Of a stretch of DNA of 64,000 nt, positions 1,764 through 27,570 are shown one piece after another. Below the pieces are notes generated by a model. That model was not told where the DNA came from and ran no database searches. It saw nothing but the letters and a program-made list of their open reading frames with translations. Every line of letters starts with the position of its first letter. Positions within the stretch are counted from its first letter, which is position 1. The stretch is taken from NCBI RefSeq assembly GCF_056712565.1, contig NZ_CM160072.1. One strand, given 5' to 3'. Made by a program: the position numbers and the translations under genes.

Positions 1764-1777
1764 GGTGTTTACTCCGT

Positions 1778-2556: not shown

Positions 2557-2559
2557 GCG

Positions 2560-3272: not shown

Positions 3273-3371
3273 GACTACCTCTGAAAAGTCGGGCGGTGGA
3301 CGCCGGTGCAGTGTCAGGTGATTCACCCTCACTGACCGGCGTGCCGCCCTGGCGCGGGGCGCATTCGGTTG

Positions 3372-4115: not shown

Positions 4116-4118
4116 CGG

Positions 4119-5192: not shown

Positions 5193-5250
5193 AGTTTTTC
5201 CTGAAATTAAGGGTTAATCGTGAAGGTTTTCCCGGACTGACTGACGCCGG

Positions 5251-6105: not shown

Positions 6106-6278
6106 TGTCAGGAGTCCTGAATAGTGATTAGAGGAGTCACATGTCGGCATCAGTTTCCCGACGATGCGCATCCTCCGCCATCAGTCCCGGATGGCTTATC
6201 ACTGACACAACAGCACCTTAGCGAATCGCAGGGCGCGACTCAGTAGCCTTGCCGTGTATTCATCACGGCGAGGTATTC
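6106..6278. promoter_or_regulatory. Divergent late-promoter region between O and P (P2 PO/PP, Ogr-activated in P2)
   Basis: Position only; a clean TGT-N12-ACA activator site could not be identified by eye. Confidence 0.35.
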
Positions 6279-8051
6279 ATGACCATCACCACAGACACCA
6301 CTCTTTTACACGACCCGCGTCGTCAGGCGGCGCTGCTGTACTGGCAGGGATTTTCCGTGCCGCAGATTGCCGCCATGTTGCAGATGAAACGCCCGACAGT
6401 GCAGAGCTGGAAACAGCGCGACGGCTGGGACAACGTTGCCCCCATCAGCCGTGTCGAAATGAGCCTGGAAGCGCGGCTGACCCAGCTCATCATCAAACCG
6501 CAGAAAACCGGCGGTGACTTCAAGGAAATTGACCTGCTGGGACGCCAGATTGAACGACTGGCACGGGTAAATCGTTACAGCCAGACCGGCAACGAGGCAG
6601 ACCTTAATCCGAACGTCGCTAACCGCAACAAAGGCGGGCGGCGCAAACCGAAAAAAAATTTTTTCAGTGACGAGGCCATCGAAAAGCTGGAGCAGATTTT
6701 CTTTGAGCAGTCTTTCGACTATCAGTTGCACTGGTATCGCGCCGGGCTTGAGCACCGCATCCGCGATATCCTGAAATCCCGCCAGATTGGCGCGACGTTT
6801 TATTTTTCCCGCGAGGCGCTGCTGCGCGCCCTGAAAACCGGCCATAACCAGATTTTTCTGTCGGCCAGTAAAACGCAGGCGTATGTGTTCCGCGAATACA
6901 TCATCGCCTTTGCCCGGCTGGTTGACGTTGACCTGACCGGTGACCCGATTGTCCTGGGCAATAACGGCGCAAAACTGATTTTTCTCGGCACCAACTCCAA
7001 CACCGCACAGAGCCATAACGGCGACCTGTACGTCGACGAGATTTTCTGGATCCCGAATTTTCAGGTACTGCGTAAGGTGGCATCAGGTATGGCCTCACAG
7101 AGTCACCTGCGCTCGACCTATTTCTCCACCCCGTCCACGCTGGCGCACGACGCCTACCCGTTCTGGTCAGGTGAACTGTTCAACCGGGGACGCGCCAGCG
7201 CCGCCGAACGCGTGGAAATCGACGTCAGTCATAACGCCCTTGCCGGTGGGCTTCTCTGTGCGGACGGCCAGTGGCGGCAGATTGTCACCATTGAGGACGC
7301 CCTGAAAGGTGGCTGCACGCTGTTCGACATTGAACAGCTCAAACGCGAAAACAGCGCCGACGATTTTAAAAACCTGTTCATGTGTGAATTTGTTGACGAC
7401 AAGGCGTCGGTGTTCCCGTTCGAGGAGCTGCAACGCTGCATGGTCGACACGCTGGAAGAATGGGAAGACTATGCGCCGTTTGCCGCCAATCCGTTCGGCT
7501 CCCGCCCGGTCTGGATTGGTTACGACCCGTCACACCGTGGCGACAGCGCCGGATGCGTGGTACTGGCACCGCCGGTGGTGGCCGGTGGCAAATTCAGAAT
7601 ACTTGAGCGTCACCAGTGGAAAGGCATGGACTTTGCCACTCAGGCGGAATCCATCCGCAAACTCACCGAAAAATACAACGTCGAATACATCGGTATTGAT
7701 GCCACCGGCCTCGGTGTCGGCGTGTTCCAGCTCGTGCGCTCGTTCTATCCCGCCGCGCGCGATATCCGCTACACGCCGGAAATGAAAACCGCAATGGTGC
7801 TCAAGGCAAAAGACGTCATCCGCCGTGGCTGTCTGGAATATGACGTCAGCGCCACCGACATCACCAGCTCGTTTATGGCTATCCGCAAGACCATGACCAG
7901 CAGCGGACGCAGCGCCACTTATGAGGCCAGCCGCAGCGAGGAAGCCAGCCACGCCGACCTCGCCTGGGCGACCATGCACGCCCTGTTAAATGAGCCACTC
8001 ACCGCCGGTATCAGCACCCCGCTGACATCCACCATTCTGGAGTTTTACTGA
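6279..8051 (+). CDS. P: Terminase large (ATPase) subunit (P2 gpP)
   Basis: 590 aa from ATG at 6279 preceded by GAGGT; MTITTDTTLLHDPRRQAALLYWQG... Confidence 0.9.
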   Translation: MTITTDTTLLHDPRRQAALLYWQGFSVPQIAAMLQMKRPTVQSWKQRDGWDNVAPISRVEMSLEARLTQLIIKPQKTGGDFKEIDLLGRQIERLARVNRYSQTGNEADLNPNVANRNKGGRRKPKKNFFSDEAIEKLEQIFFEQSFDYQLHWYRAGLEHRIRDILKSRQIGATFYFSREALLRALKTGHNQIFLSASKTQAYVFREYIIAFARLVDVDLTGDPIVLGNNGAKLIFLGTNSNTAQSHNGDLYVDEIFWIPNFQVLRKVASGMASQSHLRSTYFSTPSTLAHDAYPFWSGELFNRGRASAAERVEIDVSHNALAGGLLCADGQWRQIVTIEDALKGGCTLFDIEQLKRENSADDFKNLFMCEFVDDKASVFPFEELQRCMVDTLEEWEDYAPFAANPFGSRPVWIGYDPSHRGDSAGCVVLAPPVVAGGKFRILERHQWKGMDFATQAESIRKLTEKYNVEYIGIDATGLGVGVFQLVRSFYPAARDIRYTPEMKTAMVLKAKDVIRRGCLEYDVSATDITSSFMAIRKTMTSSGRSATYEASRSEEASHADLAWATMHALLNEPLTAGISTPLTSTILEFY

Positions 8052-9085
8052 TGAGCAAGAAAAAAGGGAAAACACCGCAACCTGCGGCAAAAAAAATGAC
8101 CGCCAGCGCCCCGAAAATGGAGGCATTCACCTTTGGTGAGCCGGTGCCGGTACTCGACCGCCGTGACATTCTGGATTACGTCGAGTGCATCAGTAACGGC
8201 AGATGGTATGAGCCGCCGGTCAGCTTTACCGGTCTGGCGAAAAGCCTGCGTGCTGCCGTGCATCACAGCTCACCGATTTACGTTAAACGCAATATTCTGG
8301 CCTCGACATTTATCCCGCATCCGTGGCTTTCGCAACAGGATTTCAGCCGCTTTGTGCTGGATTTTCTGGTGTTCGGTAATGCGTTTCTGGAAAAGCGTTA
8401 CAGCACCACCGGTAAGATCATCAGACTGGAAACCTCACCGGCAAAATATACCCGCCGTGGCGTGGAGGAGGATGTTTACTGGTGGGTGCCGTCCTTCAAC
8501 GAGCCGACACCTTTCGCGCCCGGTTCCGTGTTTCACCTGCTGGAGCCGGATATTAATCAGGAGCTGTACGGCCTGCCGGAATATCTCAGCGCCCTTAACT
8601 CTGCCTGGCTGAATGAGTCGGCCACGCTGTTCCGCCGCAAGTATTACGAAAACGGCGCGCATGCCGGATACATCATGTACGTCACCGATGCCGTGCAGGA
8701 CCGCAACGATATCGAAATGCTTCGCGAAAACATGGTGAAGTCGAAAGGCCGCAATAACTTTAAAAACCTGTTTCTCTATGCCCCACAGGGGAAAGCCGAC
8801 GGCATTAAAATTATCCCGCTCAGTGAAGTGGCGACGAAGGACGATTTTTTTAATATCAAAAAAGCCAGCGCCGTTGACCTGCTGGATGCGCACCGCATCC
8901 CCTTTCAGTTGATGGGCGGCAAGCCGGAAAACGTCGGGTCTCTGGGTGATATTGAGAAAGTGGCAAAGGTCTTTGTCCGCAATGAACTTATCCCGCTACA
9001 GGACAGGATTCGGGAAATAAACGGCTGGCTCGGTCAGGAGGTCATCCGCTTTAAAAACTACTCACTGGACACTGACAACGGCTGA
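8051..9085 (+). CDS. Q: Portal protein (P2 gpQ)
   Basis: 344 aa, ATGA overlap with P stop. Confidence 0.9.
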   Translation: MSKKKGKTPQPAAKKMTASAPKMEAFTFGEPVPVLDRRDILDYVECISNGRWYEPPVSFTGLAKSLRAAVHHSSPIYVKRNILASTFIPHPWLSQQDFSRFVLDFLVFGNAFLEKRYSTTGKIIRLETSPAKYTRRGVEEDVYWWVPSFNEPTPFAPGSVFHLLEPDINQELYGLPEYLSALNSAWLNESATLFRRKYYENGAHAGYIMYVTDAVQDRNDIEMLRENMVKSKGRNNFKNLFLYAPQGKADGIKIIPLSEVATKDDFFNIKKASAVDLLDAHRIPFQLMGGKPENVGSLGDIEKVAKVFVRNELIPLQDRIREINGWLGQEVIRFKNYSLDTDNG

Positions 9086-9090
9086 ACATC

Positions 9091-9112
9091 GCCGCCTGCG
9101 GGCGGCTTTTTT
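9091..9112 (+). terminator. Rho-independent terminator after Q
   Basis: GCCGCC-tgcg-GGCGGC hairpin followed by TTTTTT. Confidence 0.7.
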
Positions 9113-9254
9113 ACACCCCGTCATCACGCCCTCACACGCTCACCACCGCACAAAACACCCCGCAGACACACCAGCGCCTCAACGGGCAGACTAAGCGCCG
9201 TCACGACGCGCTGAGACGCTGAAAAAATAAAATCAGCACCACCGCCAGCGCGCA

Positions 9255-9273
9255 GTGCTTTCCCCGCCTCGCC
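9255..9273. other. P2 cos site (19-nt cohesive-end sequence)
   Basis: gtgctttccccgcctcgcc is the reverse complement of GGCGAGGCGGGGAAAGCAC, the P2 cohesive end as I recall it; about 170 nt downstream of Q as in P2. Confidence 0.6.
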
Positions 9274-9466
9274 CGCCCGCTTCATGGGGCGGTTTTAATG
9301 CAGTTGCATGATGAAACTGAAATCACATCAGCACTGACCGAAACTGACAAAAAGAATAGTATCTGACACATGCAAAAACACGCACTTAATATACGCCTAT
9401 CTATAGCTCCTACAGGATTGTCAAAAAACGACCAACTCGTCATAGCGTAAACACATTTGGCTCAAC

Positions 9467-9565
9467 GAACACTTACGTTATATGCCTCTTGAACATATCA
9501 AAGTCTTAAGGTAGATCTTTACCACTAAGTGGCTATATTAAGCTGCTTTTTTACATACAATAAAA
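9467..9565 (+). promoter_or_regulatory. Putative promoter region of the cargo gene (AT-rich; candidate -10 TATATT 9534-9539 or TACAAT 9556-9561)
   Basis: AT-rich upstream region with -10-like hexamers; no convincing -35; SD GAGG at 9578-9581. Confidence 0.25.
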
Positions 9566-9588
9566 GCTTTATCGTATGAGGCATAAAA

Positions 9589-11805
9589 ATGGAACTTAGA
9601 TTAAAAAATGTTACCAGTTATAAGAAAGACGCCTTCACAATACTGAATCTTGAAAAAAGAGTAAACATACTATACGGCCAAAATGGTTGTGGCAAATCTA
9701 CCATTTCAAATTATTTCTACGACTCTACACACACAGATTATAACGAGTGTGAATGTACCCTTCTTGACAATTACAAACCTCTTGTTTACAACACTAAATT
9801 TATTGAAGATAACTTCTATAATGCACAGGAACAAAAAGGTGTTTTTACATTAAGTAAAGAAAATGCAGATATTGAAAAACAATTAATTGAAAAAGAAGCA
9901 ATTAAACAGCAACTCACAGAGCAATATAGACAAAAAAAAGGAGTGTTATTGAAATTAGAAGCAGAAATGGAAAAAAAAGAAAATGAATACATCGAATCGA
10001 TCTGGAAAAAAACAGAACCAATCAGAAACTCTGTACTAAAAACCTTAATGAAAGGTAAAGTTGGCTATAAAAGACCTTTTTTTGAGATGATAAAATCATC
10101 CTCACCAATCACCTTTATTAATTTAAATGATATAGCAAAAGAATACTCTATACTATTAGAAAATAGAAACAATGAAACCGCATTAATAACTCCTTTACAT
10201 CCATATACCCCATCAATTGATGATGTAAATACATTAGCAACACCTATAATAGATACAAGCAATAGCTATTTATCAGAAACCATTAATAAACTTCATAATC
10301 TTGACTGGGTAAAAAAAGGTAAAGAACATTATTTAGACGGTTCTACATGTCCGTTTTGTCAGGAAAAAACTATTAGTCACGAATTTTTAAATGCCCTTAA
10401 ATCAATATTTGACGAAAGTTATTCAAAGAAAGTAAAACAGCTCTCAGATATAAAGTCAGTTTATGAGAAAAATACCATATATCATTTTAACGAAATACAA
10501 AACAATATATCATCATGTGCACTAATCAATGAGAAAGATAAAGAGAACATTATTTCCAATATTAAAATATTGCAAAACATTGCAGAAAAAAATTTAATAA
10601 ACATTATTGATAAGATCAACAATCCATCAACATGCGTTACATTAGAAATTGATAAAGAACTAGAAAATCATGTTCAGGAAAGCATAGGCGCTGTTAACAA
10701 GAAAATAAGAGACATAAATGATAAGGTTAAAAAACTCAAAGAGTATGAGAATAAAATCGGAAAACAAGTTTGGGGGGCTCTCCATGCTTTTTGCAGCGAT
10801 GATTTAGAGAATTTATCCAAACACAAAGAAAAATTCTTTGATATCAAAAAGAAAGTTCATGATGAATTAAATAATATTGAGCAACAAGGAAAAGAAAATA
10901 ATCTCACAATAAAAGCATTGCGAGATAAAATATCTAACATTGATTCTACGATAGACTCAATAAACACCCATTTAAAAAATCTAGGGATCTCTGGTTTTTG
11001 TATTGAAAAACATGCAGAAAGAAAAGATATGTACATTATATCTCGACCAGGGCATACAAAAAACCAAAATGTTTATAGATCTCTTAGCGAAGGTGAAAAA
11101 ACACTAATAACGTTTCTTTATTTTTTAGAGTGCTGTAAAGGTAAAACCGATAAAAATGATACCGATAGCAGGGATATTTTTATTGTTATTGACGATCCAA
11201 TATCTAGTCTATCGCAAAACTATGTCTACGACATCGCATCAATTATTCATCACCACATTATAAAAAATGAATTAACAAAGAAGGTATTAATCCTTACTCA
11301 CAATCTTTATTTCTTTCATGAACTTATTAAGCTATCTCCTAAAAGCAGAGAAGACAAACTATTTAAGAAAAACTATTATCTAGGTAGAGTAACGAAAAAT
11401 GATTTTAGTATAATTACTGAAATACAAAAAAACAGCATACAGAATGAATATCAATCTTTGTGGCAAATATTAAAAGATGCAAAAGATGGCAAAGCAAACA
11501 AAATCATAATACCGAATATTATGAGAAACATACTAGAATATTATTTTGCATTTGTTCATAGAACAGATGCTCTACAAGATGAATTAACAAAGTTGGCACG
11601 CGACGATAGCAACAGTGATTTCAAAGCATTCTACAGATACATTAACAGAGGTTCTCACTCTGATGCGGTAAATATTACTGATATGGGCGACATAGACCCA
11701 GATAAATACCTAAAACAATTGAGAACAATATTTTCAGCTACTGGTGACGAAATGCATTATTTAAAAATGATGGACGAACTAGAAGAGGAAAACGTTACCG
11801 CTTAG
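9589..11805 (+). CDS. ABC-type ATPase with coiled-coil/zinc-hook insertion and C-terminal effector-like domain; RloC/PrrC-like candidate anticodon nuclease (stand-alone defence gene)
   Basis: 738-aa ORF; Walker A GQNGCGKST, CPFC in a K/E/N-rich insert, LSEGEK signature, IFIVIDDP Walker B, LILTHN H-loop, C-terminal RNILE...H; strongly AT-rich relative to flanking prophage; sits in the P2 cos-A accessory position. Confidence 0.55.
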   Translation: MELRLKNVTSYKKDAFTILNLEKRVNILYGQNGCGKSTISNYFYDSTHTDYNECECTLLDNYKPLVYNTKFIEDNFYNAQEQKGVFTLSKENADIEKQLIEKEAIKQQLTEQYRQKKGVLLKLEAEMEKKENEYIESIWKKTEPIRNSVLKTLMKGKVGYKRPFFEMIKSSSPITFINLNDIAKEYSILLENRNNETALITPLHPYTPSIDDVNTLATPIIDTSNSYLSETINKLHNLDWVKKGKEHYLDGSTCPFCQEKTISHEFLNALKSIFDESYSKKVKQLSDIKSVYEKNTIYHFNEIQNNISSCALINEKDKENIISNIKILQNIAEKNLINIIDKINNPSTCVTLEIDKELENHVQESIGAVNKKIRDINDKVKKLKEYENKIGKQVWGALHAFCSDDLENLSKHKEKFFDIKKKVHDELNNIEQQGKENNLTIKALRDKISNIDSTIDSINTHLKNLGISGFCIEKHAERKDMYIISRPGHTKNQNVYRSLSEGEKTLITFLYFLECCKGKTDKNDTDSRDIFIVIDDPISSLSQNYVYDIASIIHHHIIKNELTKKVLILTHNLYFFHELIKLSPKSREDKLFKKNYYLGRVTKNDFSIITEIQKNSIQNEYQSLWQILKDAKDGKANKIIIPNIMRNILEYYFAFVHRTDALQDELTKLARDDSNSDFKAFYRYINRGSHSDAVNITDMGDIDPDKYLKQLRTIFSATGDEMHYLKMMDELEEENVTA

Positions 11806-11833
11806 GCCGCATATTATCGTTTTGGGTAAGAAC

Positions 11834-11853
11834 GACGGTGCTTACGCACCGTC
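11834..11853. terminator. Hairpin downstream of cargo gene (possible weak or bidirectional terminator)
   Basis: GACGGTGC-ttac-GCACCGTC perfect 8-bp stem; no clear T-run. Confidence 0.3.
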
Positions 11854-12028
11854 TCCCAACGCCCAAAGCGGTAGCGGTTGTACTGGCGTACATTCACTAG
11901 CTTTAACATGAGGCAATCTCCATGCCAGCACTATTGTTGCCAATAGCAGCCTTTATACCCTTTGTACAAAGCTAATACCAAGAGTAATGCAAAGTAGATG
12001 TCCCAAGCGGTAACGGGGCTATTCTATG

Positions 12029-14320
12029 TCAAACACAGAAAAAATCAAAGCGCCCTATGAATCCCCCCCAACCATCAGCGACCGGATACGTGAATTTTTT
12101 CCCGTCATAATTTACGGTCGCTCCACGCGCCAGCGCCTCAAGCTCCCATCGCTGCGGCATGATACCGTTCTGAGCAAGGTCAACGCGGATACGGGTGATT
12201 TGCAATCGTTCAGACCTGGTCAGTCTGGCAGATGGTGCAATTTCATGCGGTTTTAACGGGCTTCCGTTTCTTTGCTGACGGTTTGGCGTTCTCAGGTCGT
12301 ATTTTAATGCGCCCCTGAGCGCCCTCACGACCTCCGGTTCATTCCATTCAATAACACCGTCATCAACCAGATTAAGCACTGCTGCGGCGTGCTCAGAAGG
12401 TGTGGGAGCCGGTAACGAAGTATCACCACCGGTGAGCTTTCCACAGTTATTGACAGGACTCCGAGGCGCGGCGATGCCGCTTTTTAAAGTCAAAGGCTCA
12501 ACGACCGGAACTTTCGGCACAATGCGCCAGTCCGTCGTTCTGGTGATATGAATATGACGCGCGCCGAGATGCGGCGCGTAAATGCCGACCACTCTCTCGA
12601 CTTCTTCCTCGTACTCGTTAACGTCATCCGACGGGCTACGGGCAACCCTGACAGTCTGACAATCGCGCGGGACATTTGCCCCACCCTGCGCGCTGATATA
12701 CAACGCAAAATCACCACTGTCTGCGGCAGCGCGAGCAGCCTCGACGCGTTCGTCAAACTCATCAGCAATACTGACGCCGCGAGGCAATTTGCGTAGTTCA
12801 CGGTAAGCCCCCATTGTCGGCAGGCCAACCGTTTTAAATTGCGGAATTCGCCACGTTGACGCCCATGCGGTAACAGCCGCAGCAGTATCTTTCAGCGGCC
12901 TGCCGGTATCATTATCGAGCTGACCATCCAGTGCATAGCCATCGATGTTTTTTGAGATGTATTTTGCGATATACCCCGCAGCACCGCCCCGGTTAAGATG
13001 TTTTGCCTGAAAACGGTTTCGCGCGGCTCCTCTTTCGTCGCCATCCTCTTTGAGCGCATAGCGACGCATGATTTCGATAATCTGGTTACGCTGGCGTGGA
13101 TTACAAAAAAGCATCATATGCCAGTGCGGCGTTCCGTCGTGGTGTGGCTCGACGACACGCAAACCGTAGACCTGTAAATCATTATCCTTGAATGCCGTGC
13201 GCATCAGGCTCCAGATATGGCAGAGATAACGCTGCGCATCCTTTGGATTAAATGCCTCATCGTTCCAGCCGTGATTTAGCTGGACGGTTTTACTTTCGCC
13301 TTTTCCGACCTGACGTGTCGGGTGATACTTTGACGGCGCGGTAAGCGTGATAAACATCCCCACATCACCCTCTGCGGCGGCGTAACGCTCAATACCGGCA
13401 ATGGTGTTCATCAGCTCCATCCGGCGAATTTCAGGATTAGAAATACTGCCCATCACCTTACTGATAAGGTCGATGCGTTCGCCGGTTTCCCTGTTTTCAA
13501 GGTCACACGATTTAAGAAATTCCAGATTTGCCTGGCGGCGTGCACGCACATCACGAATGGCATGTTTACTGGCATAAGGTGAACGGTCTTTATTGACCTC
13601 CCCGACAGCAATCAGTAACGCCTCATGCCAGCGCATACGCTGGCCTTTAAGCTGACTAATCCACCACTCATCGTTAAACAGGCGGGCAATGGCAGAATAT
13701 GCCTGCCTCGTGGTCATCTGTCCTTTACGGTATTTTTTCCAGTAGAGCGGGGAAATATTGAAAGCACGTGCAGCGCCAGCAACATGACCATAGAGGTGAG
13801 CCTGCGCCTCATCCGTAAACAGCGATTCTTTTTCGCCATGCGCATCCACCCAGGCATCGCAGAGTTCCTCATACATCATGAAAAGCTGCGATGAGATACG
13901 GGCGGCAAACTTTTTCAGCTCCTTATCATTCATCCCCGGCAGACGCGCATAATGGTCACGCTCTGCCAGAAACAGCAACGACGCGTCGGTGTTCATTTCA
14001 TGGCGCTGATTCACACGCTCAATGCGCGGCCATAAACGACGCTGAAAAGTGGATGTGAGGAAATAAAACCCGTGCACCGGGCTTTTATTGCGCCGGATGT
14101 AGTCATAGCGTGAAGTAAACAGCGAGCGCAAAAAGTAAGGCAGGCGGTTAATCGTGGATAAAACACCTTGCACCTGACGCATCTCGTCACGTGTAAGGGG
14201 TCTTTCGCGCCCGACGGCCTCGCGTGGCGCGTTCCATGCATAAGCACCGGTAAACGTCTTACCGGTGCCTGCGGTAAATGCTGACGGAGGGACAAAACGC
14301 CCGGAGGCTTTAACGGCCAT
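12029..14320 (-). CDS. A: Replication initiation (rolling-circle nicking) protein (P2 gpA)
   Basis: Long ORF; start taken at ATG 14320 (MAVKASGRFVPPSAF...) rather than the ORF-track start at 14362. Confidence 0.9.
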   Translation of the reverse strand: MAVKASGRFVPPSAFTAGTGKTFTGAYAWNAPREAVGRERPLTRDEMRQVQGVLSTINRLPYFLRSLFTSRYDYIRRNKSPVHGFYFLTSTFQRRLWPRIERVNQRHEMNTDASLLFLAERDHYARLPGMNDKELKKFAARISSQLFMMYEELCDAWVDAHGEKESLFTDEAQAHLYGHVAGAARAFNISPLYWKKYRKGQMTTRQAYSAIARLFNDEWWISQLKGQRMRWHEALLIAVGEVNKDRSPYASKHAIRDVRARRQANLEFLKSCDLENRETGERIDLISKVMGSISNPEIRRMELMNTIAGIERYAAAEGDVGMFITLTAPSKYHPTRQVGKGESKTVQLNHGWNDEAFNPKDAQRYLCHIWSLMRTAFKDNDLQVYGLRVVEPHHDGTPHWHMMLFCNPRQRNQIIEIMRRYALKEDGDERGAARNRFQAKHLNRGGAAGYIAKYISKNIDGYALDGQLDNDTGRPLKDTAAAVTAWASTWRIPQFKTVGLPTMGAYRELRKLPRGVSIADEFDERVEAARAAADSGDFALYISAQGGANVPRDCQTVRVARSPSDDVNEYEEEVERVVGIYAPHLGARHIHITRTTDWRIVPKVPVVEPLTLKSGIAAPRSPVNNCGKLTGGDTSLPAPTPSEHAAAVLNLVDDGVIEWNEPEVVRALRGALKYDLRTPNRQQRNGSPLKPHEIAPSARLTRSERLQITRIRVDLAQNGIMPQRWELEALARGATVNYDGKKFTYPVADGWGGFIGRFDFFCV

Positions 14321-14585
14321 ATGAGCCAAAAGCCTCTGAACAACGCTTGCTGAGTTGCTCAACCTGCGCGTTTAAATCAGCAAAAGACTTTGCGCTTCCG
14401 GTCAGAATATCGTGATGCATCAGGCCGGAAACGAGCTGGCTTAATTTCGGGTAATAACCAACCACCGCCAGCCATTCCTGACCGGCGTTTTTACCGCTTT
14501 CCGCTCTCTTTTTCTCGTGGAGAATAAACTGAAAGCTGTCACTGGTAACGACATAACGTTCGCCAATTTCAATACGAATACTCAT
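14310..14585 (-). CDS. P2 early-operon small protein (orf80-83 family)
   Basis: 91-aa ORF immediately upstream of A. Confidence 0.6.
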   Translation of the reverse strand: MSIRIEIGERYVVTSDSFQFILHEKKRAESGKNAGQEWLAVVGYYPKLSQLVSGLMHHDILTGSAKSFADLNAQVEQLSKRCSEAFGSYGR

Positions 14586-14806
14586 GCCGTTCTCCGGTAA
14601 TGTTTGTTTTTTGCTTCAAAGACTGACTGACAGGAAACACAACGCGTGGCTGACGGATAAGCCGCACGACGGGCAGCAGGTATTGGCGCGTCACACTCTT
14701 CGCAAACCAGCGCAGAAGCACCGCAATGTTTTACCCTTGCCGCGTTAATCTGGCGCTCCAGTAATTCAGCCTGTTGTTCCTGAATAAAATCTACGTTGTC
14801 CGGCAT
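14582..14806 (-). CDS. TraR/DksA-type C4 zinc-finger protein of the P2 early operon
   Basis: 74 aa with C-x2-C ... C-x2-C (CEEC ... CVSC). Confidence 0.7.
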   Translation of the reverse strand: MPDNVDFIQEQQAELLERQINAARVKHCGASALVCEECDAPIPAARRAAYPSATRCVSCQSVFEAKNKHYRRTA

Positions 14807-14808
14807 TA

Positions 14809-15111
14809 TCAGCTCCTTTTATCGTTAAGTTTCCTGGATACATCAGCGCAATAACTGGCAAGTTCTGTCGTTAATTTTGTCAGTTCATCCACTGAGGAAA
14901 TTTGCTTGTGGAATACAGCGCGTTTAACAAGTAAATTGACCACATCAGACAGGAGGTTTAATTCATTCTGATAAATCGCGATAACAGATTCAGTGATGTC
15001 GCGTTTTTCTTTATCAAGACAAAGTTGAATAAGAGACAAATCGCCATTTTTCATAACGGCGATTTTTAAGGCGTTATTCAGTAATACAACTGAATGAGAA
15101 CAGGACATCAA
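14809..15111 (-). CDS. P2 early-operon small protein, hypothetical
   Basis: 100-aa ORF, tightly packed in early operon. Confidence 0.6.
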
Positions 15112-15332
15112 AGTACCTCCCCGCGAGACAATCCGATATTGTGAAATTTTTCCGACTCCTGACTGAGCAGCTCGACTATCTCCACGCGGGATAACTCCGC
15201 CTTTGTGATATGGCGAATCATGGCGTCAAGATGAGAAGAAAAGCGCGTCGCAGCGTCGGCCTGTGCTTCGGTTCTGGCCTGTTGCAGCAGTAATGCGTAT
15301 TTACCGCACTGATTTTCAGAAACTGTATGCAT
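15108..15332 (-). CDS. P2 early-operon small protein, hypothetical
   Basis: 74-aa ORF, overlapping stop/start with neighbour. Confidence 0.6.
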
Positions 15333-15395
15333 GACTTTCTCCGGGCAAAAAGAAGCCCCGCACGATTAAGCGCGTTAAAAACTCTGGTTAATTAC

Positions 15396-15902
15396 TTAAT
15401 GCAGATATTGCTCTGGTTTTACCGACGTCAGAATTGTCGGTGCATACTCAAACAGACTGAATAATTCACGTAATGCACGGAATAAAGCATCACGCCAGTA
15501 ACATGATTCCTCATTAATTCGCCAGTATGGCTGGTTAAATTCTTTTTCTGTCAGTCGTGCGTGCATAAATAAAGTGCGACGCTGACTGACTGTTAAAAAA
15601 CTAATATATGCATACTCACTTGCGCCAACCTGACGGCGTTTTGAGAATGCCCCACGCAACTCATCAATTGCACATACCAGTCGTTCACGTTCGACGTCGT
15701 TCATTTCTTCAAAACGCATCGTTGCGTGACGCTGTTTTAACTGCGCATGAAAGCAAACCGTTAGCCGTTCGCGCTCCATCATCTGATTATAATAATCACA
15801 TGTATCCTGCCAGCGAGGAACGGCAAGATGCTTACCAATTATCCGGCGCATAGCTGCTGGCTGTTTTTCAACGAGATTGAGCGTCATCACTGTCATTTCC
15901 AT
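15396..15902 (-). CDS. B: Replication protein B
   Basis: 168-aa ORF (possible real start at 15896, MTVMTLNL...); P2 position between cox and the small ORFs. Confidence 0.8.
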   Translation of the reverse strand: MEMTVMTLNLVEKQPAAMRRIIGKHLAVPRWQDTCDYYNQMMERERLTVCFHAQLKQRHATMRFEEMNDVERERLVCAIDELRGAFSKRRQVGASEYAYISFLTVSQRRTLFMHARLTEKEFNQPYWRINEESCYWRDALFRALRELFSLFEYAPTILTSVKPEQYLH

Positions 15903-16063
15903 ACCCTCCGGCTTTTCAGAAAGGTCAGAGCCTTTTTTAACGGACTCTGTTTTTTGGTGCGGATAATGATTCCCTTACGCCCCTTACCGTGGGTGATGGT
16001 GAAGTCAATCGCCCTGGGGCTTTCGTTACGCAATAACTGAGCAATACAACGAGGCTCGTTCAT
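15893..16063 (-). CDS. P2 orf78-like small protein
   Basis: 56 aa from ATG 16063 preceded by AAGGAG; lies between cox and B. Confidence 0.5.
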   Translation of the reverse strand: MNEPRCIAQLLRNESPRAIDFTITHGKGRKGIIIRTKKQSPLKKALTFLKSRRVWK

Positions 16064-16073
16064 ACGGTTCTCC

Positions 16074-16349
16074 TTAACGTGGTTCACCGAGACCTAACCA
16101 CATCAACCAGCCGTCACGAATCTCTTTAGGGCGGCTTTCATAAGCCAGTTTTAGTCCGTTATTCCATGCCGGAAGGTATACCCAATATTCACCTGCACGA
16201 CCTGAAGCTGATTGTGGATCGGTCATATCAATTACAGGCAGCTTTCCTTTATCGATCATCCGACGAACCGCTCCTGTCGATTTTCCTATTAGTTTTGCGA
16301 ACTCCTGATAAGGAATCGCATCAGTCATGAGTGTTACTTGCTTGCTCAT
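16074..16349 (-). CDS. cox: Cox (excisionase / transcriptional regulator)
   Basis: 91 aa, divergent from C. Confidence 0.85.
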   Translation of the reverse strand: MSKQVTLMTDAIPYQEFAKLIGKSTGAVRRMIDKGKLPVIDMTDPQSASGRAGEYWVYLPAWNNGLKLAYESRPKEIRDGWLMWLGLGEPR

Positions 16350-16463
16350 GTCGTCCCCCAGCCCTCATGAATTGCGTTTAATGCCTTATAATGCCTTTTA
16401 GTGCCCACATCCAAGCACTAAACAATCTACATCTAAACTAAATACCATTGAGATCTAAACACC
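16350..16463. promoter_or_regulatory. P2 immunity switch: Pe/Pc promoter region with two direct-repeat operator half-sites ATCTAAAC (16431-16438 and 16453-16460)
   Basis: Two identical 8-mers spaced 22 bp between divergent cox and C; TATAAT at 16386-16391. Confidence 0.5.
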
Positions 16464-16763
16464 ATGTCAAACACGATAAGCGAGAAGATAGTCTTAATGC
16501 GAAAATCAGAGTATTTGAGCAGACAACAACTTGCTGATTTAACAGGGGTTCCGTATGGCACGCTGAGTTACTATGAAAGTGGTCGTTCAACACCTCCAAC
16601 AGATGTCATGATGAACATCCTGCAGACCCCACAATTCACCAAATACACTTTATGGTTCATGACCAATCAGGTCGCTCCTGAGTCCGGGCAAATTGCGCCC
16701 GCTCTCGCACACTTTGGGCAAAACGAAACAACGTCGCCCCACTCCGGTCAAAAGACTGGTTAA
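16464..16763 (+). CDS. C: Immunity repressor C
   Basis: 99 aa MSNTISEKIVLMRKSEYLSRQQLADLTGVPYGTLSYYESG..., helix-turn-helix. Confidence 0.9.
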   Translation: MSNTISEKIVLMRKSEYLSRQQLADLTGVPYGTLSYYESGRSTPPTDVMMNILQTPQFTKYTLWFMTNQVAPESGQIAPALAHFGQNETTSPHSGQKTG

Positions 16764-16878
16764 CAATTTATCGTGAATATATTCATCACAAGTGCCTACT
16801 ATTGGTGGCTAAATTTCAGCCACCACGAAAAAAGCGATTAGTAGTAGCAAAAAAAAGTACCACTCGGAGGGTTTTCTG

Positions 16879-17892
16879 ATGGCAATCAAAAAACTCGATG
16901 ATGGTCGATATGAAGTGGACATCCGCCCTACTGGACGTAACGGAAAACGCATCCGTAGGAAGTTTGATAAGAAAAGCGAAGCTGTCGCTTTCGAAAAATA
17001 CACGTTGTACAACCACCACAATAAAGAATGGCTATCAAAACCAACAGACAAACGACGTCTGTCGGAACTGACACAGATCTGGTGGGATTTAAAGGGTAAA
17101 CACGAAGAGCATGGGAAATCTAATCTTGGAAAAATTGAAATCTTCACAAAAATAACGAATGACCCATGCGCATTTCAAATCACGAAATCCCTTATCAGCC
17201 AGTACTGCGCCACCCGAAGAAGCCAGGGTATTAAACCTTCGAGTATCAATCGTGATTTAACATGTATTAGCGGCATGTTTACAGCCCTGATTGAAGCGGA
17301 GTTATTCTTTGGTGAGCACCCTATCAGAGGGACAAAGAGGCTTAAGGAGGAAAAACCAGAAACAGGCTATCTCACACAGGAAGAAATTGCCTTACTGCTT
17401 GCAGCACTTGACGGCGACAATAAAAAGATTGCGATTCTTTGCCTGAGTACAGGAGCACGTTGGGGAGAAGCAGCTCGTTTGAAAGCAGAAAATATCATCC
17501 ATAACCGCGTCACGTTTGTTAAAACGAAAACAAACAAACCACGCACCGTCCCGATTTCAGAGGCTGTTGCCAAAATGATCGCGGATAACAAACGAGGTTT
17601 TTTATTCCCTGATGCTGATTACCCTCGCTTCAGACGAACAATGAAAGCAATAAAACCGGATTTGCCAATGGGGCAAGCCACACATGCACTAAGGCACAGC
17701 TTTGCCACTCATTTCATGATTAATGGAGGAAGTATTATCACGCTACAACGGATACTAGGTCACACGCGGATTGAGCAAACTATGGTTTACGCTCATTTTG
17801 CGCCAGAGTACCTTCAGGACGCCATTTCTCTTAATCCGCTAAGAGGTGGTACTGAGGCCGAGAGTGTCCACACAGTGTCCACAGTAGAGTAA
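16879..17892 (+). CDS. int: Tyrosine integrase
   Basis: 337 aa with C-terminal R...H-x-x-R...Y catalytic signature (HALRHSFATH ... MVYAHF). Confidence 0.95.
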   Translation: MAIKKLDDGRYEVDIRPTGRNGKRIRRKFDKKSEAVAFEKYTLYNHHNKEWLSKPTDKRRLSELTQIWWDLKGKHEEHGKSNLGKIEIFTKITNDPCAFQITKSLISQYCATRRSQGIKPSSINRDLTCISGMFTALIEAELFFGEHPIRGTKRLKEEKPETGYLTQEEIALLLAALDGDNKKIAILCLSTGARWGEAARLKAENIIHNRVTFVKTKTNKPRTVPISEAVAKMIADNKRGFLFPDADYPRFRRTMKAIKPDLPMGQATHALRHSFATHFMINGGSIITLQRILGHTRIEQTMVYAHFAPEYLQDAISLNPLRGGTEAESVHTVSTVE

Positions 17893-17971
17893 CGTTTAAG
17901 GGCTTTCAGTGGTAATTTATGCCGCTCAAACCCGCATTGTACCGTTGAAAGCCCCTACTGGTGACACCCTA

Positions 17972-19059: not shown

Positions 19060-19959
19060 ATGGCAGAATTTCCCGCCAGCTTACTGATTCTTAATGGCAA
19101 AAGTACTGACAATCTACCCTTGCGCGAAGCAATTATGCTGTTGCGTGAGGAAGGAATGACGATCCATGTGCGGGTCACCTGGGAGAAAGGCGATGCCGCA
19201 CGATATGTAGAGGAGGCACGGAAGTTGGGCGTCGCAACGGTGATTGCCGGTGGTGGCGATGGCACCATTAATGAAGTTTCTACGGCGTTGATTCAGTGTG
19301 AGGGGGATGACATACCCGCGCTGGGAATTTTACCATTAGGAACCGCCAATGATTTTGCCACCAGTGTAGGGATTCCTGAGGCACTGGATAAGGCGCTGAA
19401 ACTGGCAATTGCCGGTAACGCCATTGCGATAGATATGGCGCAGGTCAATAAACAAACCTGTTTTATTAATATGGCGACAGGCGGATTTGGGACGCGTATT
19501 ACCACAGAAACGCCGGAAAAATTAAAAGCCGCGCTGGGTGGCGTCTCTTACATCATTCATGGCTTAATGCGCATGGATACTCTGCAACCGGACCGTTGTG
19601 AGATCCGCGGTGAAAACTTTCACTGGCAAGGTGACGCCCTGGTCATTGGTATTGGTAACGGGCGTCAGGCCGGTGGCGGTCAACAATTGTGCCCGAACGC
19701 ATTAATTAACGATGGCTTGCTGCAACTGCGCATTTTTACCGGCGATGAAATTATTCCGACTCTCGTATCAACCTTAAAATCTGACGAAGATAACCCGAAT
19801 ATTATCGAAGGTGCTTCGTCGTGGTTTGATATACAAGCCCCACACGAAATCACTTTTAATCTTGATGGCGAACCGTTGAGTGGGCAAAACTTCCATATTG
19901 AAATACTTCCGGCGGCGTTGCGTTGTCGATTACCACCAGATTGTCCATTGTTGCGTTAA
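19060..19959 (+). CDS. yegS: Lipid kinase YegS
   Basis: 299 aa with DAG-kinase-like GGDGT motif. Confidence 0.9.
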
Positions 19960-19997
19960 TAAAACTATTCTCTGTTGAACCAGAGAGAATCCGTAAT

Positions 19998-20031
19998 GCC
20001 GGATGCGGTGTAAACACCTCATCCGGCATAC
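19998..20031. repeat. REP (repetitive extragenic palindrome) element
   Basis: gccggatgcggtgtaaacacctcatccggcatac between convergent yegS and gatR. Confidence 0.5.
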
Positions 20032-20040
20032 AGAACAATA

Positions 20041-20820
20041 CTACACCGTAATTAATTTTACCCGTGTCTTCTGCAATGCCAGTTTATCCACCTCAGACAC
20101 AGCATCATCGGTAATAATAATGTCAATTTTTTCGATTGGCAGTACCTGATTAAAACCGCGACGGTTAAATTTCGATGAATCGAGAACGGCAATCACTTTA
20201 TTCGCCGCTGTCACCATCGCACCGCTAACGGAATAACCTTCATTAAAGGTCGTAATACCATTAACCGCATCAATACCATCAGCACCGACAAACATTAAAT
20301 CGGCATTAATATCCTGCAGGGAACGTTCAGCAATAGATCCATGCATAGATCGCGTTTTATGGCGGACCGTGCCACCGCAGACGACCAGAGTAATGTCTTT
20401 ATTTTCGGAAAGGGCAAACGCCGCCGGGAGACTGTTGGTAATCACCGTGATATTTTTGGCGGTCATTAAACCTTCGGCGATAAGCATTGTGGTACTTCCG
20501 CTGTCGAGAATAACGGTCATCCCTTCGTGGATCATTTTGACTGCCGCCTGCGCTATTCTGTTTTTTGGCGCACTGGCGAGCTGAAATCGCTCTTTAAACC
20601 CAACTTCCTGGGTCTCGGTTTCACTATTACCGGACATTATTTTCGCCGCACCGCCATGAAAGCGCGTAACCACGCCTTTTTGTTCGAGAAAGCGCAAATC
20701 GGCACGGATTGTCGCTTCCGAGGCAGCAAATACTCCCGCCAGATCCTGAACAAGCACGGTTCCCTGTTCATTCACTAATTGGATGATCTTATTCCTTCGC
20801 TCGAATGAATTCATCGTCAT
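20041..20820 (-). CDS. gatR: DeoR-family galactitol operon repressor GatR (intact)
   Basis: 259-aa uninterrupted ORF upstream of the gat operon. Confidence 0.85.
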   Translation of the reverse strand: MTMNSFERRNKIIQLVNEQGTVLVQDLAGVFAASEATIRADLRFLEQKGVVTRFHGGAAKIMSGNSETETQEVGFKERFQLASAPKNRIAQAAVKMIHEGMTVILDSGSTTMLIAEGLMTAKNITVITNSLPAAFALSENKDITLVVCGGTVRHKTRSMHGSIAERSLQDINADLMFVGADGIDAVNGITTFNEGYSVSGAMVTAANKVIAVLDSSKFNRRGFNQVLPIEKIDIIITDDAVSEVDKLALQKTRVKLITV

Positions 20821-20919
20821 TTACCCATATTCAATTGTGGCTAGTGTAAACGAAGGGGGACCATTGGTGAATGATCTGTTTTGCACAATACCGGGCCAGC
20901 ATCACGCTGGCCCGCGGTT

Positions 20920-21960
20920 TCAGGGAATGAGCAACACTTTGCCCGGCATAGCATTACGAGCGATGTCACGCACCGCCTGGGCGAAGCTTTCAAAGCTTCC
21001 ACGGTGAGCGATTAATGGCTCCAGGCTTAACTTACGTTCTGTCAGCAACCGGCTCGCCGTTTCCCACTCCTGCCCCGGCCAAGGGCTGGAGTAGTTCATC
21101 CAACTGCCGATAACCGTCAGCTCTTTACGTAATATTTTGCCAAACGTTGTCGATGTTAAATGCAGATCCTGATGCAACGTGCCCACCAGCGCCAGCTGGG
21201 CATGAGGCCCGGCAATCTCTACCGCCAGTTCGACAGTTTGCGGGACGCCAGCCGTCTCGAGGATAAGCTGATTAAAGCGCAGCTCGCGTAAAACGCCCTG
21301 CATTTGCGGCGCGCTCATTTCAAGGCTGTTAAATGTTTGCATCGCACCGAAAGATTTTGCCAGTGCCAGTTTTTCTGAGCTAATGTCGATAGCCGTCACA
21401 CTCTTTGCTCCCAGCGCGACAGCGCACTGAATAGCCAGCAGGCCAATGGTTCCGGCACCAATAATAATAACGTTTTTATTCTCACAACCTTGCGCTAAAT
21501 GAAAAGCATGCAGGCCAACGGTAATCGGCTCAATAAAAGCCCCATCCTCAATAGGCATATCCGTGGGTAGAGCAAAGACATTTTTTCGCTTAACGACAAT
21601 ATATTCAGCAAGTCCACCATCACGCCGCGAGCCAATAAAATCATATTTTGCGCACTGGGAATAAAACCCTTTCAAACACTCTGGACAAGTAAAACAGGGT
21701 AATAACGGCACACAGGCAACCACATCGCCAGGGTGTAAATCATCAACACCGGATCCCACCGCATCAATATAGCCGCTAAATTCATGACCTAACGTTATTG
21801 GATAATAATGTGCACCATTTTTAAATATCCTGGGTAAATCGGAACCACATAAGCCCGAGCTGGCAATTTTTACCCGCACCTCATCCTGATGTTTAATTTC
21901 AGGAATGACGCTTTCTGCAACGCGCACGATACCATCAGTATCATTCACCACTGATTTCAT
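20920..21960 (-). CDS. gatD: Galactitol-1-phosphate 5-dehydrogenase
   Basis: 346 aa Zn-dependent MDR dehydrogenase; gat operon position. Confidence 0.9.
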   Translation of the reverse strand: MKSVVNDTDGIVRVAESVIPEIKHQDEVRVKIASSGLCGSDLPRIFKNGAHYYPITLGHEFSGYIDAVGSGVDDLHPGDVVACVPLLPCFTCPECLKGFYSQCAKYDFIGSRRDGGLAEYIVVKRKNVFALPTDMPIEDGAFIEPITVGLHAFHLAQGCENKNVIIIGAGTIGLLAIQCAVALGAKSVTAIDISSEKLALAKSFGAMQTFNSLEMSAPQMQGVLRELRFNQLILETAGVPQTVELAVEIAGPHAQLALVGTLHQDLHLTSTTFGKILRKELTVIGSWMNYSSPWPGQEWETASRLLTERKLSLEPLIAHRGSFESFAQAVRDIARNAMPGKVLLIP

Positions 21961-22007
21961 AAAAACTCCTGATTATTAAGGGGGATAACCTCCCCCTCAG
22001 GTAAAAA

Positions 22008-23363
22008 TTATTCTGCGAGAACGGCTTTCTCTTGTTTAATAAAGCCACGCGCTCTACGCCAGGTCATGAAAATACCGGTAAGATAAATGGCACCGATAAT
22101 AATGAAACCGGGAATATTTTGCGGGGAGAAAACCTGAATCAGTAACCAGGTAATGGGAGAACCGCCCTGATCCATTGAAGCCACCATGCCCCCGGCTTTT
22201 AACGCCCCAGCATTAGCCGCCAGTTGGGTGTGCAAACCAATAGTTTGCGTCGCGATCCACAGGGTGATGCTCATAATGATGACACCCGAGATTAAGGTGC
22301 GGAACAGATTTCCACGATGCACGGCAACTGCCATCGCCACAAAGAAGCCGATAGTTGCAAGATCGCCAAACGGCAGCACCTGATTACCCGGAACACAAAC
22401 AGCAATTAAAATGGTGAGAGGGATAAAAATCAGGCTTGCCGATACCACCGCCGTATGCCCCAGCAGCAACGCCGGATCAAGGCCAATCAGGAACTCCTGA
22501 CCGCCGAACTTCGCCTGTAAACGACTACGGGCCTGCTTAGCGATGGGCGTTAAACCATCCATGATGGGTTTAATCACCCGTGGCATCAGCAGCATAACTG
22601 CCGCCGTTTTTACCGCCAGCTGCAATACACCTTTGACATCGTAACCCGCGAGGATGCCGGTAATCAGCCCCATCACAAAGCCCACGGTGACAGGTTCGCC
22701 AAATGGGCCAAATTTGCGCTGAATATCGTCGGCGCTAAATTTAATACGGTTAACGCCTGGGATTTTCTCGATGATAGCATCCACCAGCACCGCAATTGGC
22801 CCCAGATACGCCGACGTACCGTGCGGAATAGCAATGCCTTCCAGCTCAAAGAAATTTCGAGTATCGCGGGCAAACCAGTCGCCGAGCTTATAAACAAACG
22901 CCGCGTGAATTACCACACCCGCCATCCCTATCATCCATGAACCGGTTGCCAGATGCAGCAATGCGCCGGTGAAGGTCATATGCCAGATATTCCAGATATC
23001 AACATTTACCACCCGCGTCATACGGGTCAGTAGCATCGCCACGTTAACCAGAATCGCAATCGGAATCGCCACCAGCGCAATTTGCGACGCCCAGGTCATT
23101 GGTGAAGAGCCCGGCCAACCGACATCGACCACATGCAGATTCAGGTCAAAATTTTCCGCCATCGCTTTCGCCGCCGGGCCAATGGAATCCAGCATTAAGC
23201 CAATCACAAGGCCAATACCAACAAAGCCAATCCCGATATGCAGACCTGCTTTAAAGCAATCGCCTGCCTTCATGCCTAATATTTTAGAAAAAATAATGAT
23301 GACAATCGGCAGCATCACCGTAGGGCCGAGGTCGAGAATATAACGCATGACTTCTGAAAACAT
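22008..23363 (-). CDS. gatC: PTS galactitol-specific EIIC
   Basis: 451 aa polytopic membrane protein. Confidence 0.9.
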   Translation of the reverse strand: MFSEVMRYILDLGPTVMLPIVIIIFSKILGMKAGDCFKAGLHIGIGFVGIGLVIGLMLDSIGPAAKAMAENFDLNLHVVDVGWPGSSPMTWASQIALVAIPIAILVNVAMLLTRMTRVVNVDIWNIWHMTFTGALLHLATGSWMIGMAGVVIHAAFVYKLGDWFARDTRNFFELEGIAIPHGTSAYLGPIAVLVDAIIEKIPGVNRIKFSADDIQRKFGPFGEPVTVGFVMGLITGILAGYDVKGVLQLAVKTAAVMLLMPRVIKPIMDGLTPIAKQARSRLQAKFGGQEFLIGLDPALLLGHTAVVSASLIFIPLTILIAVCVPGNQVLPFGDLATIGFFVAMAVAVHRGNLFRTLISGVIIMSITLWIATQTIGLHTQLAANAGALKAGGMVASMDQGGSPITWLLIQVFSPQNIPGFIIIGAIYLTGIFMTWRRARGFIKQEKAVLAE

Positions 23364-23366
23364 AGG

Positions 23367-23651
23367 TCACCCCTGTAAGATAGTCAGAATTTTATTTTGT
23401 AATGCTTCGATACCGACACCAGAAACAAAAGGCATGCCGTGAACTAACGGAATATTGCCAAAACTACGATCCACCCTGGCAGTGGTGCATATCAAATGCA
23501 CGCCATCCATATAGGTTTCTATTTCATTAACCCGACACTGGATTAATTCAACAGGAATATTATGACTCTGACACAACTCTTTAATTTCTTCCGCCGCCAT
23601 CGTAGAGGTCGCAACCGCGCCTCCGCAAGCGACAATAATTTTGCGTTTCAT
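23367..23651 (-). CDS. gatB: PTS galactitol-specific EIIB
   Basis: 94 aa. Confidence 0.9.
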
Positions 23652-23681
23652 AAATAGTCCTTTTTATTGTTACAGAGGGAT

Positions 23682-24134
23682 TTATTCGTCTGAATCTAAA
23701 ACATACTTTGTGAAGTATTCCTTTAACTGGGTTTCAGGAAGAGTGATTAGTGTCTCGACGATATCGGGCTGTTGTAACTTGCCAAATAAACAGCGTAAAA
23801 GTTTCAATTGCTGCTGCGGATTTTCCACAATCAACGCAATAACCAACGATACCGCCACGTCGTTATCATCATCCGCTTGCTGAAAATGAACTTTATTTGT
23901 TGGCCTTAACAGATAAATGGCTGACGACTTAGCATGAATCGCCTCACAATGCGGTATTGCAATGGCGTGCTGCTGAAGCATTATCCCGGTAGGGAATTCT
24001 GCTTCTCTGGTAATTAATGCCTGTGGCCAGGTATCATGAACCACACCTTTCGCGAGCATCTCATTACCGATATGGGTTAAAACTTCGCTACGATCGACAA
24101 AAGAAATTCCGCTACGAACAAACAGGTTAGTCAT
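23682..24134 (-). CDS. gatA: PTS galactitol-specific EIIA
   Basis: 150 aa. Confidence 0.9.
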   Translation of the reverse strand: MTNLFVRSGISFVDRSEVLTHIGNEMLAKGVVHDTWPQALITREAEFPTGIMLQQHAIAIPHCEAIHAKSSAIYLLRPTNKVHFQQADDDNDVAVSLVIALIVENPQQQLKLLRCLFGKLQQPDIVETLITLPETQLKEYFTKYVLDSDE

Positions 24135-24143
24135 ATACCGTCC

Positions 24144-26301
<2,158 letters not shown>

Positions 26302-26403
26302 TCATTTATTTTCGATTTCAAAACATAATGAAATTATTTGTTTTTAAATGTCGCGATAACGATCACAAAAACGACAATATGAAAATCAATCCAGGAATGA
26401 AAG

Positions 26404-26434
26404 GCAAAAAAAACGGCCTCCCGGGGGAAGCCGT
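26404..26434 (-). terminator. Rho-independent terminator downstream of fbaB
   Basis: Hairpin acggcctcccgggggaagccgt; on minus strand followed by a run of 8 T. Confidence 0.5.
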
Positions 26435-26456
26435 AACAAAGTACGCGTGGTTTTAT

Positions 26457-26490
26457 GCCGGATGTGGCGTTAACGCCTTTTCCGGCCTAC
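26457..26490. repeat. REP element
   Basis: gccggatgtggcgttaacgccttttccggcctac. Confidence 0.5.
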
Positions 26491-26517
26491 GGGGTAGTGC
26501 TGTTCGTATGAAGCGCA

Positions 26518-27570
26518 TCAGGCGATAGTAATTTTGCTATCGAGATAAACGTCCTGCACGGCGTTAATCAGTTTCACGCCGTCAGCCATCGATTTCTTGA
26601 ACGCCTTACGTCCAAGAATCAGCCCCATTCCGCCTGCGCGTTTGTTGATAACCGCAGTACGCACTGCATCGCTGAGGTCAGTTTCACCGCCTGCAGCACC
26701 GCCGGAGTTTATCAACCCGGCCCGGCCCATATAGCAGTTAGCTAACTGATAACGCACCAGGTCAATCGGGTTTTCGCTGGTCAACTTGCTGTACACTCGA
26801 TCGTCGGTATAACCGTAATTAATCGCTTTATAGCCGCCGTTATTTTCCGCCATTTTTTGTTTGACGATATCTGCACCTATGGTTGCCGCCAGATGGTTCG
26901 CCTGACCGGTCAGGTCGGCGGAAACATGGTAATCAACGCCATCTTTTTTAAAGGCGGAGTTACGCAAATAGGCCCACAGCACTGTCACCATGCCCAGCTC
27001 GTGCGCACGTTCAAAAGCCGCAGAAATTTCTTCAATCTGGCGACGTGACTCTTCCGAGCCAAAATAGATAGTCGCACCAACGGCCACCGCGCCCATATTG
27101 AACGCCTGCTCCACGCTGGCATACAGCGTTTGATCGTAGGTATTCGGGTAACTTAGCGTCTCGTTGTGATTAAGTTTGACGAGAAATGGGATGCGATGCG
27201 CGTAGCGCCGCGATACCGATGCCAGCACGCCGTAAGTTGACGCCACACAGTTACAGCCCGCTTCGATCGCCAGTTCAACAATGTTTTTCGGGTCAAAGTA
27301 GAGCGGGTTAGCGGCAAATGAAGCTCCGGCAGAGTGCTCAACGCCCTGGTCAACCGGCAGAATAGAAAGATATCCTGTGCCAGCCAGACGCCCGGTGTTG
27401 TACAACGTCTGCATATTACGTAACACCGCTGGCGGGCGATTATTGTCAATCATCACGCGGTCTACGTAGTCATGTCCGGGGAGATAAAGCTGGTCAGAAG
27501 GAATAGTCATACAACGGTGCTGTAAAAGGTTGTCGGCGTCTTTGCCAAGCAACTGCGCAATATCTGTCAT
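26518..27570 (-). CDS. fbaB: Fructose-bisphosphate aldolase class I
   Basis: 350 aa from ATG 27570 ([20 protein letters not shown]...). Confidence 0.9.

Follow-up and report, generated by a model that had tools for sequence, protein, structure and literature searches.

An Uninterrupted gatR Repressor Gene in an Escherichia coli gat Locus and What It Suggests for the Regulation of Galactitol Use

The gatR gene codes for the repressor of galactitol utilization, and the IS3-broken allele of this gene in Escherichia coli K-12 MG1655 has been described since the 1990s. A gat locus in which gatR is uninterrupted thus raises the question of whether the gat genes of its host are held under repression and induced by galactitol, or whether an intact reading frame can accompany constitutive or effectively silent gat expression. 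In the present work, we have addressed this question for a stretch of 64,000 nucleotides of contig NZ_CM160072.1 (assembly GCF_056712565.1), referred to here as the window, by comparing its gat locus with those of K-12, other reference strains and the complete genomes of E. coli. The features on which the analyses are based are listed in Table 1.

The gatR gene and its product

Both the list of open reading frames and direct reading of the sequence identify gatR as one open reading frame of 259 codons, which begins with ATG and contains no internal stop codons. This length is that of the longest open reading frame and not necessarily that of the protein, which is possibly shorter, as the start annotated by PGAP in near-identical genomes is the second in-frame ATG (position 20814 of the window), giving a product of 257 amino acids (aa). 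A Shine-Dalgarno-like motif (GGGT) is located 8 nt from the second ATG and 2 nt from the first, and in view of this spacing a length of 257 aa is no less likely than one of 259 aa.

Two conserved domains are present in the predicted protein. The N-terminal DNA-binding domain is HTH_DeoR (Pfam PF08220; residues 8–60, E = 1.3e-16, 60.5 bits against a cut-off of 21) and the C-terminal effector-binding domain, a sugar-phosphate sensor, is DeoRC (Pfam PF00455; residues 85–238, E = 1.8e-51, 174.7 bits against a cut-off of 31.8). The original prediction of an uninterrupted 259-codon gene of the DeoR family is hence borne out by the reading frame and by both domains, with the qualification that the PGAP start yields 257 aa. 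A sequence search for homologues of solved structure gave a single one, 7l6l, which is the C-terminal domain of the repressor of the deoxyribose operon. The best NCBIfam matches of the protein are to AgaR (232.7 bits, cut-off 260) and SrlR (227.8 bits, cut-off 350), both below their cut-offs, and none of its NCBIfam matches is to a model named for GatR. AgaR and SrlR (GutR) are DeoR-family sugar or hexitol repressors of E. coli which resemble GatR over its full length and share its two-domain layout; however, because it scores below both equivalog cut-offs, GatR is a paralogue of these proteins rather than a member of either group, and its operon and, presumably, its inducer are not those of AgaR or SrlR. 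The exact protein is found on at least 1000 contigs, where its source name is "galactitol utilization operon repressor". Judged by sequence and position, the window's protein qualifies as an orthologue of GatR, and the gene is wild-type gatR, coding for a repressor of the DeoR family.

Table 1. Coordinates of gat genes, intergenic regions and candidate regulatory sites in the window
Feature	Position	Strand	Remarks
yegS	19060–19959	+	Convergent with gatR
Convergent gatR/yegS spacer	19969–20030	-	REP-like palindrome 19999–20030; terminator-like hairpin and T-run 19969–19986
gatR CDS	20041–20820	-	ATG at 20820, 259 codons; stop codon 20041–20043
Site equivalent to the K-12 IS3 insertion	20516–20518	-	GAC, ORF nt 303–305, codon 101/102; unoccupied
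gatD–gatR spacer	20821–20919	-	GC-rich hairpin (about 20892–20914) directly after the gatD stop
Candidate gatR promoter, weak sigma-70-like	20866–20871 and 20843–20848	-	TTCACC, 17-nt spacer, TACACT; by eye
gatD	20920–21960	-	Intact ORF
gatC	22008–23363	-	Intact ORF
gatB	23367–23651	-	Intact ORF
gatA	23682–24134	-	Intact ORF
gatZ	24144–25406	-	Intact ORF
gatY	25435–26289	-	Intact ORF
gatY promoter/operator region	26290–26410	-	Candidate sites from sequence and repeats
Candidate GatR operator	26315–26334		Inverted repeat ATTTCA-N8-TGAAAT
AgaR-like motif, candidate	26320–26333		TTTCATTATGTTTT; overlaps the ATTTCA-N8-TGAAAT repeat
CRP-like half-conserved site, candidate	about 26352–26367		TGTGA-N6-TCGCG; by eye

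The gat cluster and the disrupted gatR gene of K-12

The gat genes are transcribed from the minus strand in the order gatY-Z-A-B-C-D-R, with gatR, located between gatD and yegS, closing the gatYZABCD-gatR cluster. The description of gatR as preceding the gat operon is correct in plus-strand coordinates only, since by transcription the gene lies downstream of gatD. The same gene order, with yegS convergent, is found in the window, K-12, ATCC 11775, HS, Z0117EC0054 and CFT073, and the gatYZABCD genes (20920–26289) are the presumed target of repression by GatR. No insertion sequence is present in the gat region, as had been noted from the letters of the window at the outset: every gat gene is equal in length to its HS counterpart and free of internal stops, and positions 19960–26520 match many complete genomes at 100% identity in a single piece. 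A search for private lesions in the six structural gat genes revealed none, the exact protein coded for by each being found on at least 1000 contigs, and at least 58 genomes, those of APEC O1 and UM146 among them, carry the whole 6.5-kb gat locus without a single difference. In two other strains with the same gat haplotype (viz. ZJ3920 and SCU-116), the match to the locus is split in two pieces by extra DNA of approximately 0.8 and 1.4 kb, respectively, an IS4 element being annotated there in SCU-116; therefore, natural insertions of IS elements into gat occur in this lineage.

The genes of the cluster differ in their divergence from HS. The most diverged is gatZ, with 94.6% nucleotide identity and 17 aa differences (including G131D, W268R, and G310R), and gatA is 99.1% identical. 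This uneven divergence suggests a mosaic or recombinant history within the gat operon.

The record of MG1655 annotates gatR as two pseudogene fragments on either side of an IS3 transposase. Our alignment of the window to MG1655, in which both junctions were read, places an IS3 of 1258 bp after nt 305 of the gatR reading frame, flanked by a 3-bp target duplication (GAC), and the K-12 product is cut to 112 aa, consisting of 101 native residues and a read-through tail. When the K-12 gene is reconstructed by deleting the IS3 and one copy of GAC, it codes for 259 aa and differs from the window's gene at 24 of 780 nt and at a single residue (I198V), 258 of the 259 residues being identical. The MG1655 pseudogene (gatR::IS3, or IS3E) and the window's gatR are hence the same gene, with the difference that the window's copy carries no insertion: an IS3 of the K-12 type after nt 305 is absent, and the sequence is continuous across the equivalent site. 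The disruption of gatR in K-12, which had been put forward at the outset, is thereby confirmed, and the constitutive expression of gat in this strain, put forward together with it, agrees with several papers that attribute constitutive gat expression in MG1655 to the inactivation of gatR by an IS insertion. NCM3722, which is also a K-12 strain, is reported to lack the gatR disruption.

Of the 5426 complete E. coli genomes, 349 contain the exact gatR/IS3 junction, and all of the full-length junction carriers among the matches listed are named K-12 or laboratory strains. A one-piece gatR is held by 4756 of these genomes (about 88%), a count that is based on BLAST summaries in which at least 80% of the gene lies in one piece and which is blind to small lesions. 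On the strength of these two numbers, an intact gatR is the norm for the species, representing its ancestral and majority state, and the K-12 allele is the exception; the intact gene is thus not a distinguishing feature of this strain.

Intergenic regions and proposed regulation of gat

The regions flanking gatR and gatY contain a number of candidate regulatory sites (Table 1). The candidate gatR promoter in the gatD–gatR spacer agrees with the consensus at 8 of 12 positions, which is under the threshold of the scanner, and a sigma-70 promoter scan of the gat region gave nothing above chance. The 105 bp between gatD and the PGAP start (20815–20919) are 100% identical in the window (phylogroup B2), HS and K-12. 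The flanking genes differ by 2–3%, so that about three differences would be expected in this interval and none is found, which provides mild evidence that the spacer holds a constrained regulatory element, either the hairpin or a gatR promoter. At the other end of the gene, the palindrome and the hairpin of the gatR/yegS spacer, assigned a function from a terminator scan and the sequence, are probably where transcription of gatR ends.

Four haplotypes, those of the window, CFT073, HS and K-12, share a conserved core in the gatY promoter. The promoter region contains an inverted repeat that is a candidate GatR operator and, overlapping it, the motif TTTCATTATGTTTT, which we take to resemble the operator core of AgaR. 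A search for GatR operators with statistical support yielded none, as the repeat and the AgaR-like motifs are no commoner here than in shuffled sequence, and a consensus scan likewise gave no above-background support for the CRP-like site or for the gatR promoter. Farther upstream, the fbaB–gatY spacer (26410–26517) of the window is without about 78 bp of REP-like sequence found in K-12 and HS, and in CFT073 the place of this stretch is taken by IS200C. Divergence is far greater in the region upstream of gatY than in the coding sequence: over the 171 bp concerned, only 157 genomes match the window at 99% identity or more, and most others match at 90–95%.

These features are compatible with the following model. 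The N-terminal winged helix-turn-helix of GatR would bind operators in the gatY promoter, for which the sites above are candidates, and the bound repressor would shut off the genes for the galactitol PTS and the tagatose-bisphosphate pathway. Galactitol entering through basal EII-Gat would give rise to a phosphorylated intermediate of the pathway, and binding of this intermediate by the DeoRC sensor domain would release the repression. By analogy with DeoR, GlpR and LacR, either galactitol-1-phosphate or tagatose-6-phosphate is the probable inducer. A further layer, catabolite control, would be supplied by CRP, so that in the window strain expression of gat would be expected to require both the presence of galactitol and the absence of glucose. 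In MG1655, by contrast, the IS3 within gatR leaves gat expression constitutive.

Strain background, galactitol phenotype and alternative readings

The window differs from the genome of Z0117EC0054 by 3 SNPs over 64 kb. One of these (56128) lies in yehM, which in Z0117EC0054 is annotated, together with yehI and yehK, as a frameshifted pseudogene (window span 49281–57440); the window counterparts of yehI, yehK and yehM occupy 49281–52912, 52973–53289 and 55168–57440, respectively. The type strain, ATCC 11775, is the top match to gatR at 100%, and its identity with the window strain was considered and rejected, as the window is without the ISEc12 that the type strain carries in its prophage and shows several base differences from it, namely three substitutions and an indel of a single base in a comparison of 16.8 kb. 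The prophage concerned is P2-like; part of it occupies about positions 1–17900, adjoining yegR and running off the left end of the window, and it includes an integrase (16879–17892), cox, a replication endonuclease, and portal, terminase, capsid and lysis genes. K-12 retains only a remnant at this site, consisting of ogrK and part of the late control D gene. In the slot for P2 accessory genes, which has the replication endonuclease gene on one side and the portal gene on the other, the window codes for a 738-aa AAA_13 ATPase (9589–11805, plus strand). From end to end this protein matches PDC-S06, a candidate defence family of PADLOC (E = 1e-254), and its C-terminus shows PrrC-like similarity. 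The gene for this ATPase is intact in the window and split by the IS21-like element ISEc12 in ATCC 11775 and JCM 20135.

The GatR proteins of the window and HS are identical at 256 of 257 residues, the single difference being the conservative substitution I198V, and their genes differ by 22 synonymous and 1 non-synonymous codon changes, which is the strongest constraint seen for any gene of the cluster in the comparison with HS (gatZ, for comparison, shows 48 synonymous and 17 non-synonymous changes). This ratio, together with the 24 nt and 1 aa differences from the K-12 gene, indicates that gatR is under strong purifying selection. The window's GatR is also identical at all 257 residues to that of CFT073 (WP_001367074.1). 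The gatR genes of HS and CFT073 lie at the same locus, between gatD and yegS, and have the same length and domain layout as that of the window, from which they differ by 14 synonymous nt in CFT073 and by about 24 nt in HS, as in K-12; the haplotype upstream of gatY in the window differs from those of HS and CFT073. The wild isolate EC3132 belongs with HS and CFT073 among the carriers of wild-type gatR (UniProt P36930 family). Replacement of the MG1655 pseudogene by the HS allele restored the regulation of gat, and the regulated strain quickly re-evolved constitutive gatR::IS mutants in mice (PMC5850726). In a CRISPRi screen, silencing of gatR was beneficial for CFT073 and LF82 in the mouse gut (bioRxiv 10.64898/2026.01.05.697630), and since it changes fitness in these strains, GatR is an active repressor there. 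The authors of the screen interpret their data to mean that both strains "fail to de-repress" gat in the mouse model (bioRxiv 10.64898/2026.01.05.697630); therefore, induction of gat may be weak or conditional in B2 strains.

The reading that best accommodates these observations is that the window strain possesses a repressible, galactitol-inducible gat operon, and we regard it as highly probable from the sequence comparisons. It could be argued that the reading frame is intact and its product inactive, owing to I198V or to a silent regulatory defect, with gat constitutive as in K-12. All that speaks for such a defect is one substitution in comparison with K-12 and HS, and it is a conservative one; the exact protein is moreover found on at least 1000 contigs and is that of CFT073, for which a knock-down phenotype is known, the excess of synonymous over non-synonymous codon differences from HS argues for a function that has been kept, and the window shares its gatD–gatR spacer unchanged with HS and K-12. 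An inactive GatR is hence very improbable. A minor rival is the opposite possibility, that gatR is intact and active and that under standard conditions gat is in effect cryptic in this lineage, so that the strain would score as galactitol-negative. Tight repression, or induction that is weak or temperature-dependent, would produce this outcome, and an intact gatR would then be a mark of poor galactitol use. The type strain DSM 30083T (= ATCC 11775), whose gatR and gatY promoter are identical to those of the window, is dulcitol-negative in Kauffmann's tests, in OmniLog and on M9, and MG1655 with its broken gatR is positive (PMC4334874). The failure of CFT073 and LF82 to de-repress gat, as the CRISPRi data have been read (bioRxiv 10.64898/2026.01.05.697630), and the speed with which regulated derivatives of MG1655 evolved gatR::IS constitutive mutants in mice (PMC5850726) point in the same direction. 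Growth on galactitol is temperature-sensitive. This fits with the galactitol indicator plates having been kept at 30 C (PMC5850726).

Several observations nevertheless make an effectively cryptic gat operon unlikely in the window strain. The window is distinct from ATCC 11775, and therefore the dulcitol-negative phenotype of the type strain is not simply transferable to it. Within the gat genes the two differ at one base only (position 23525, C in the window and T in the type strain), which changes codon 43 of gatB from GAA (Glu) in the window to AAA (Lys) in the type strain. The type strain thus has a candidate lesion of its own, GatB E43K, which is absent from the window; the K43 allele is found on 216 contigs, compared with at least 1000 for the E43 allele of the window. 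On sequence grounds, E43K is a testable candidate for the cause of the dulcitol-negative phenotype of the type strain, which is a classical diagnostic trait. The gat locus of the window is identical to those of APEC O1, APEC O18, UM146, PMV-1 and O1/O2:K1:H7 strains, which we take to belong to the ST95 complex of phylogroup B2, and the window haplotype is common in such presumed ST95-complex strains. Of ST95 isolates, 83% were dulcitol-positive in API tests (PMC3917908). This frequency, together with the presence of E43, makes it more likely that the window strain is Gat+ and regulated. A strain with gatR and the rest of the gat locus intact need not be Gat+, because DSM 30083T, which is one gat base away, is dulcitol-negative. 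A broader proposal is that in B2 strains, probably those of the ST95 complex, intact GatR holds gat in a nearly non-inducible state or, alternatively, that GatB E43K is behind the dulcitol-negativity of the type strain; we consider this proposal quite doubtful. If gat were indeed nearly non-inducible, the use of galactitol would be limited by failed de-repression and not by missing genes, which would explain both the existence of dulcitol-negative strains with a complete set of gat genes, the type strain being an example, and the advantage of gatR loss in the gut.

The intact gatR of the window is the ordinary, already known wild-type state of a well-described gene. The constitutive expression of gat in MG1655 is a laboratory peculiarity, and it drives the well-known rapid loss of gat in evolution experiments in the mouse gut; wild strains such as that of the window thus need not match MG1655 and should not be expected to behave in the same manner.
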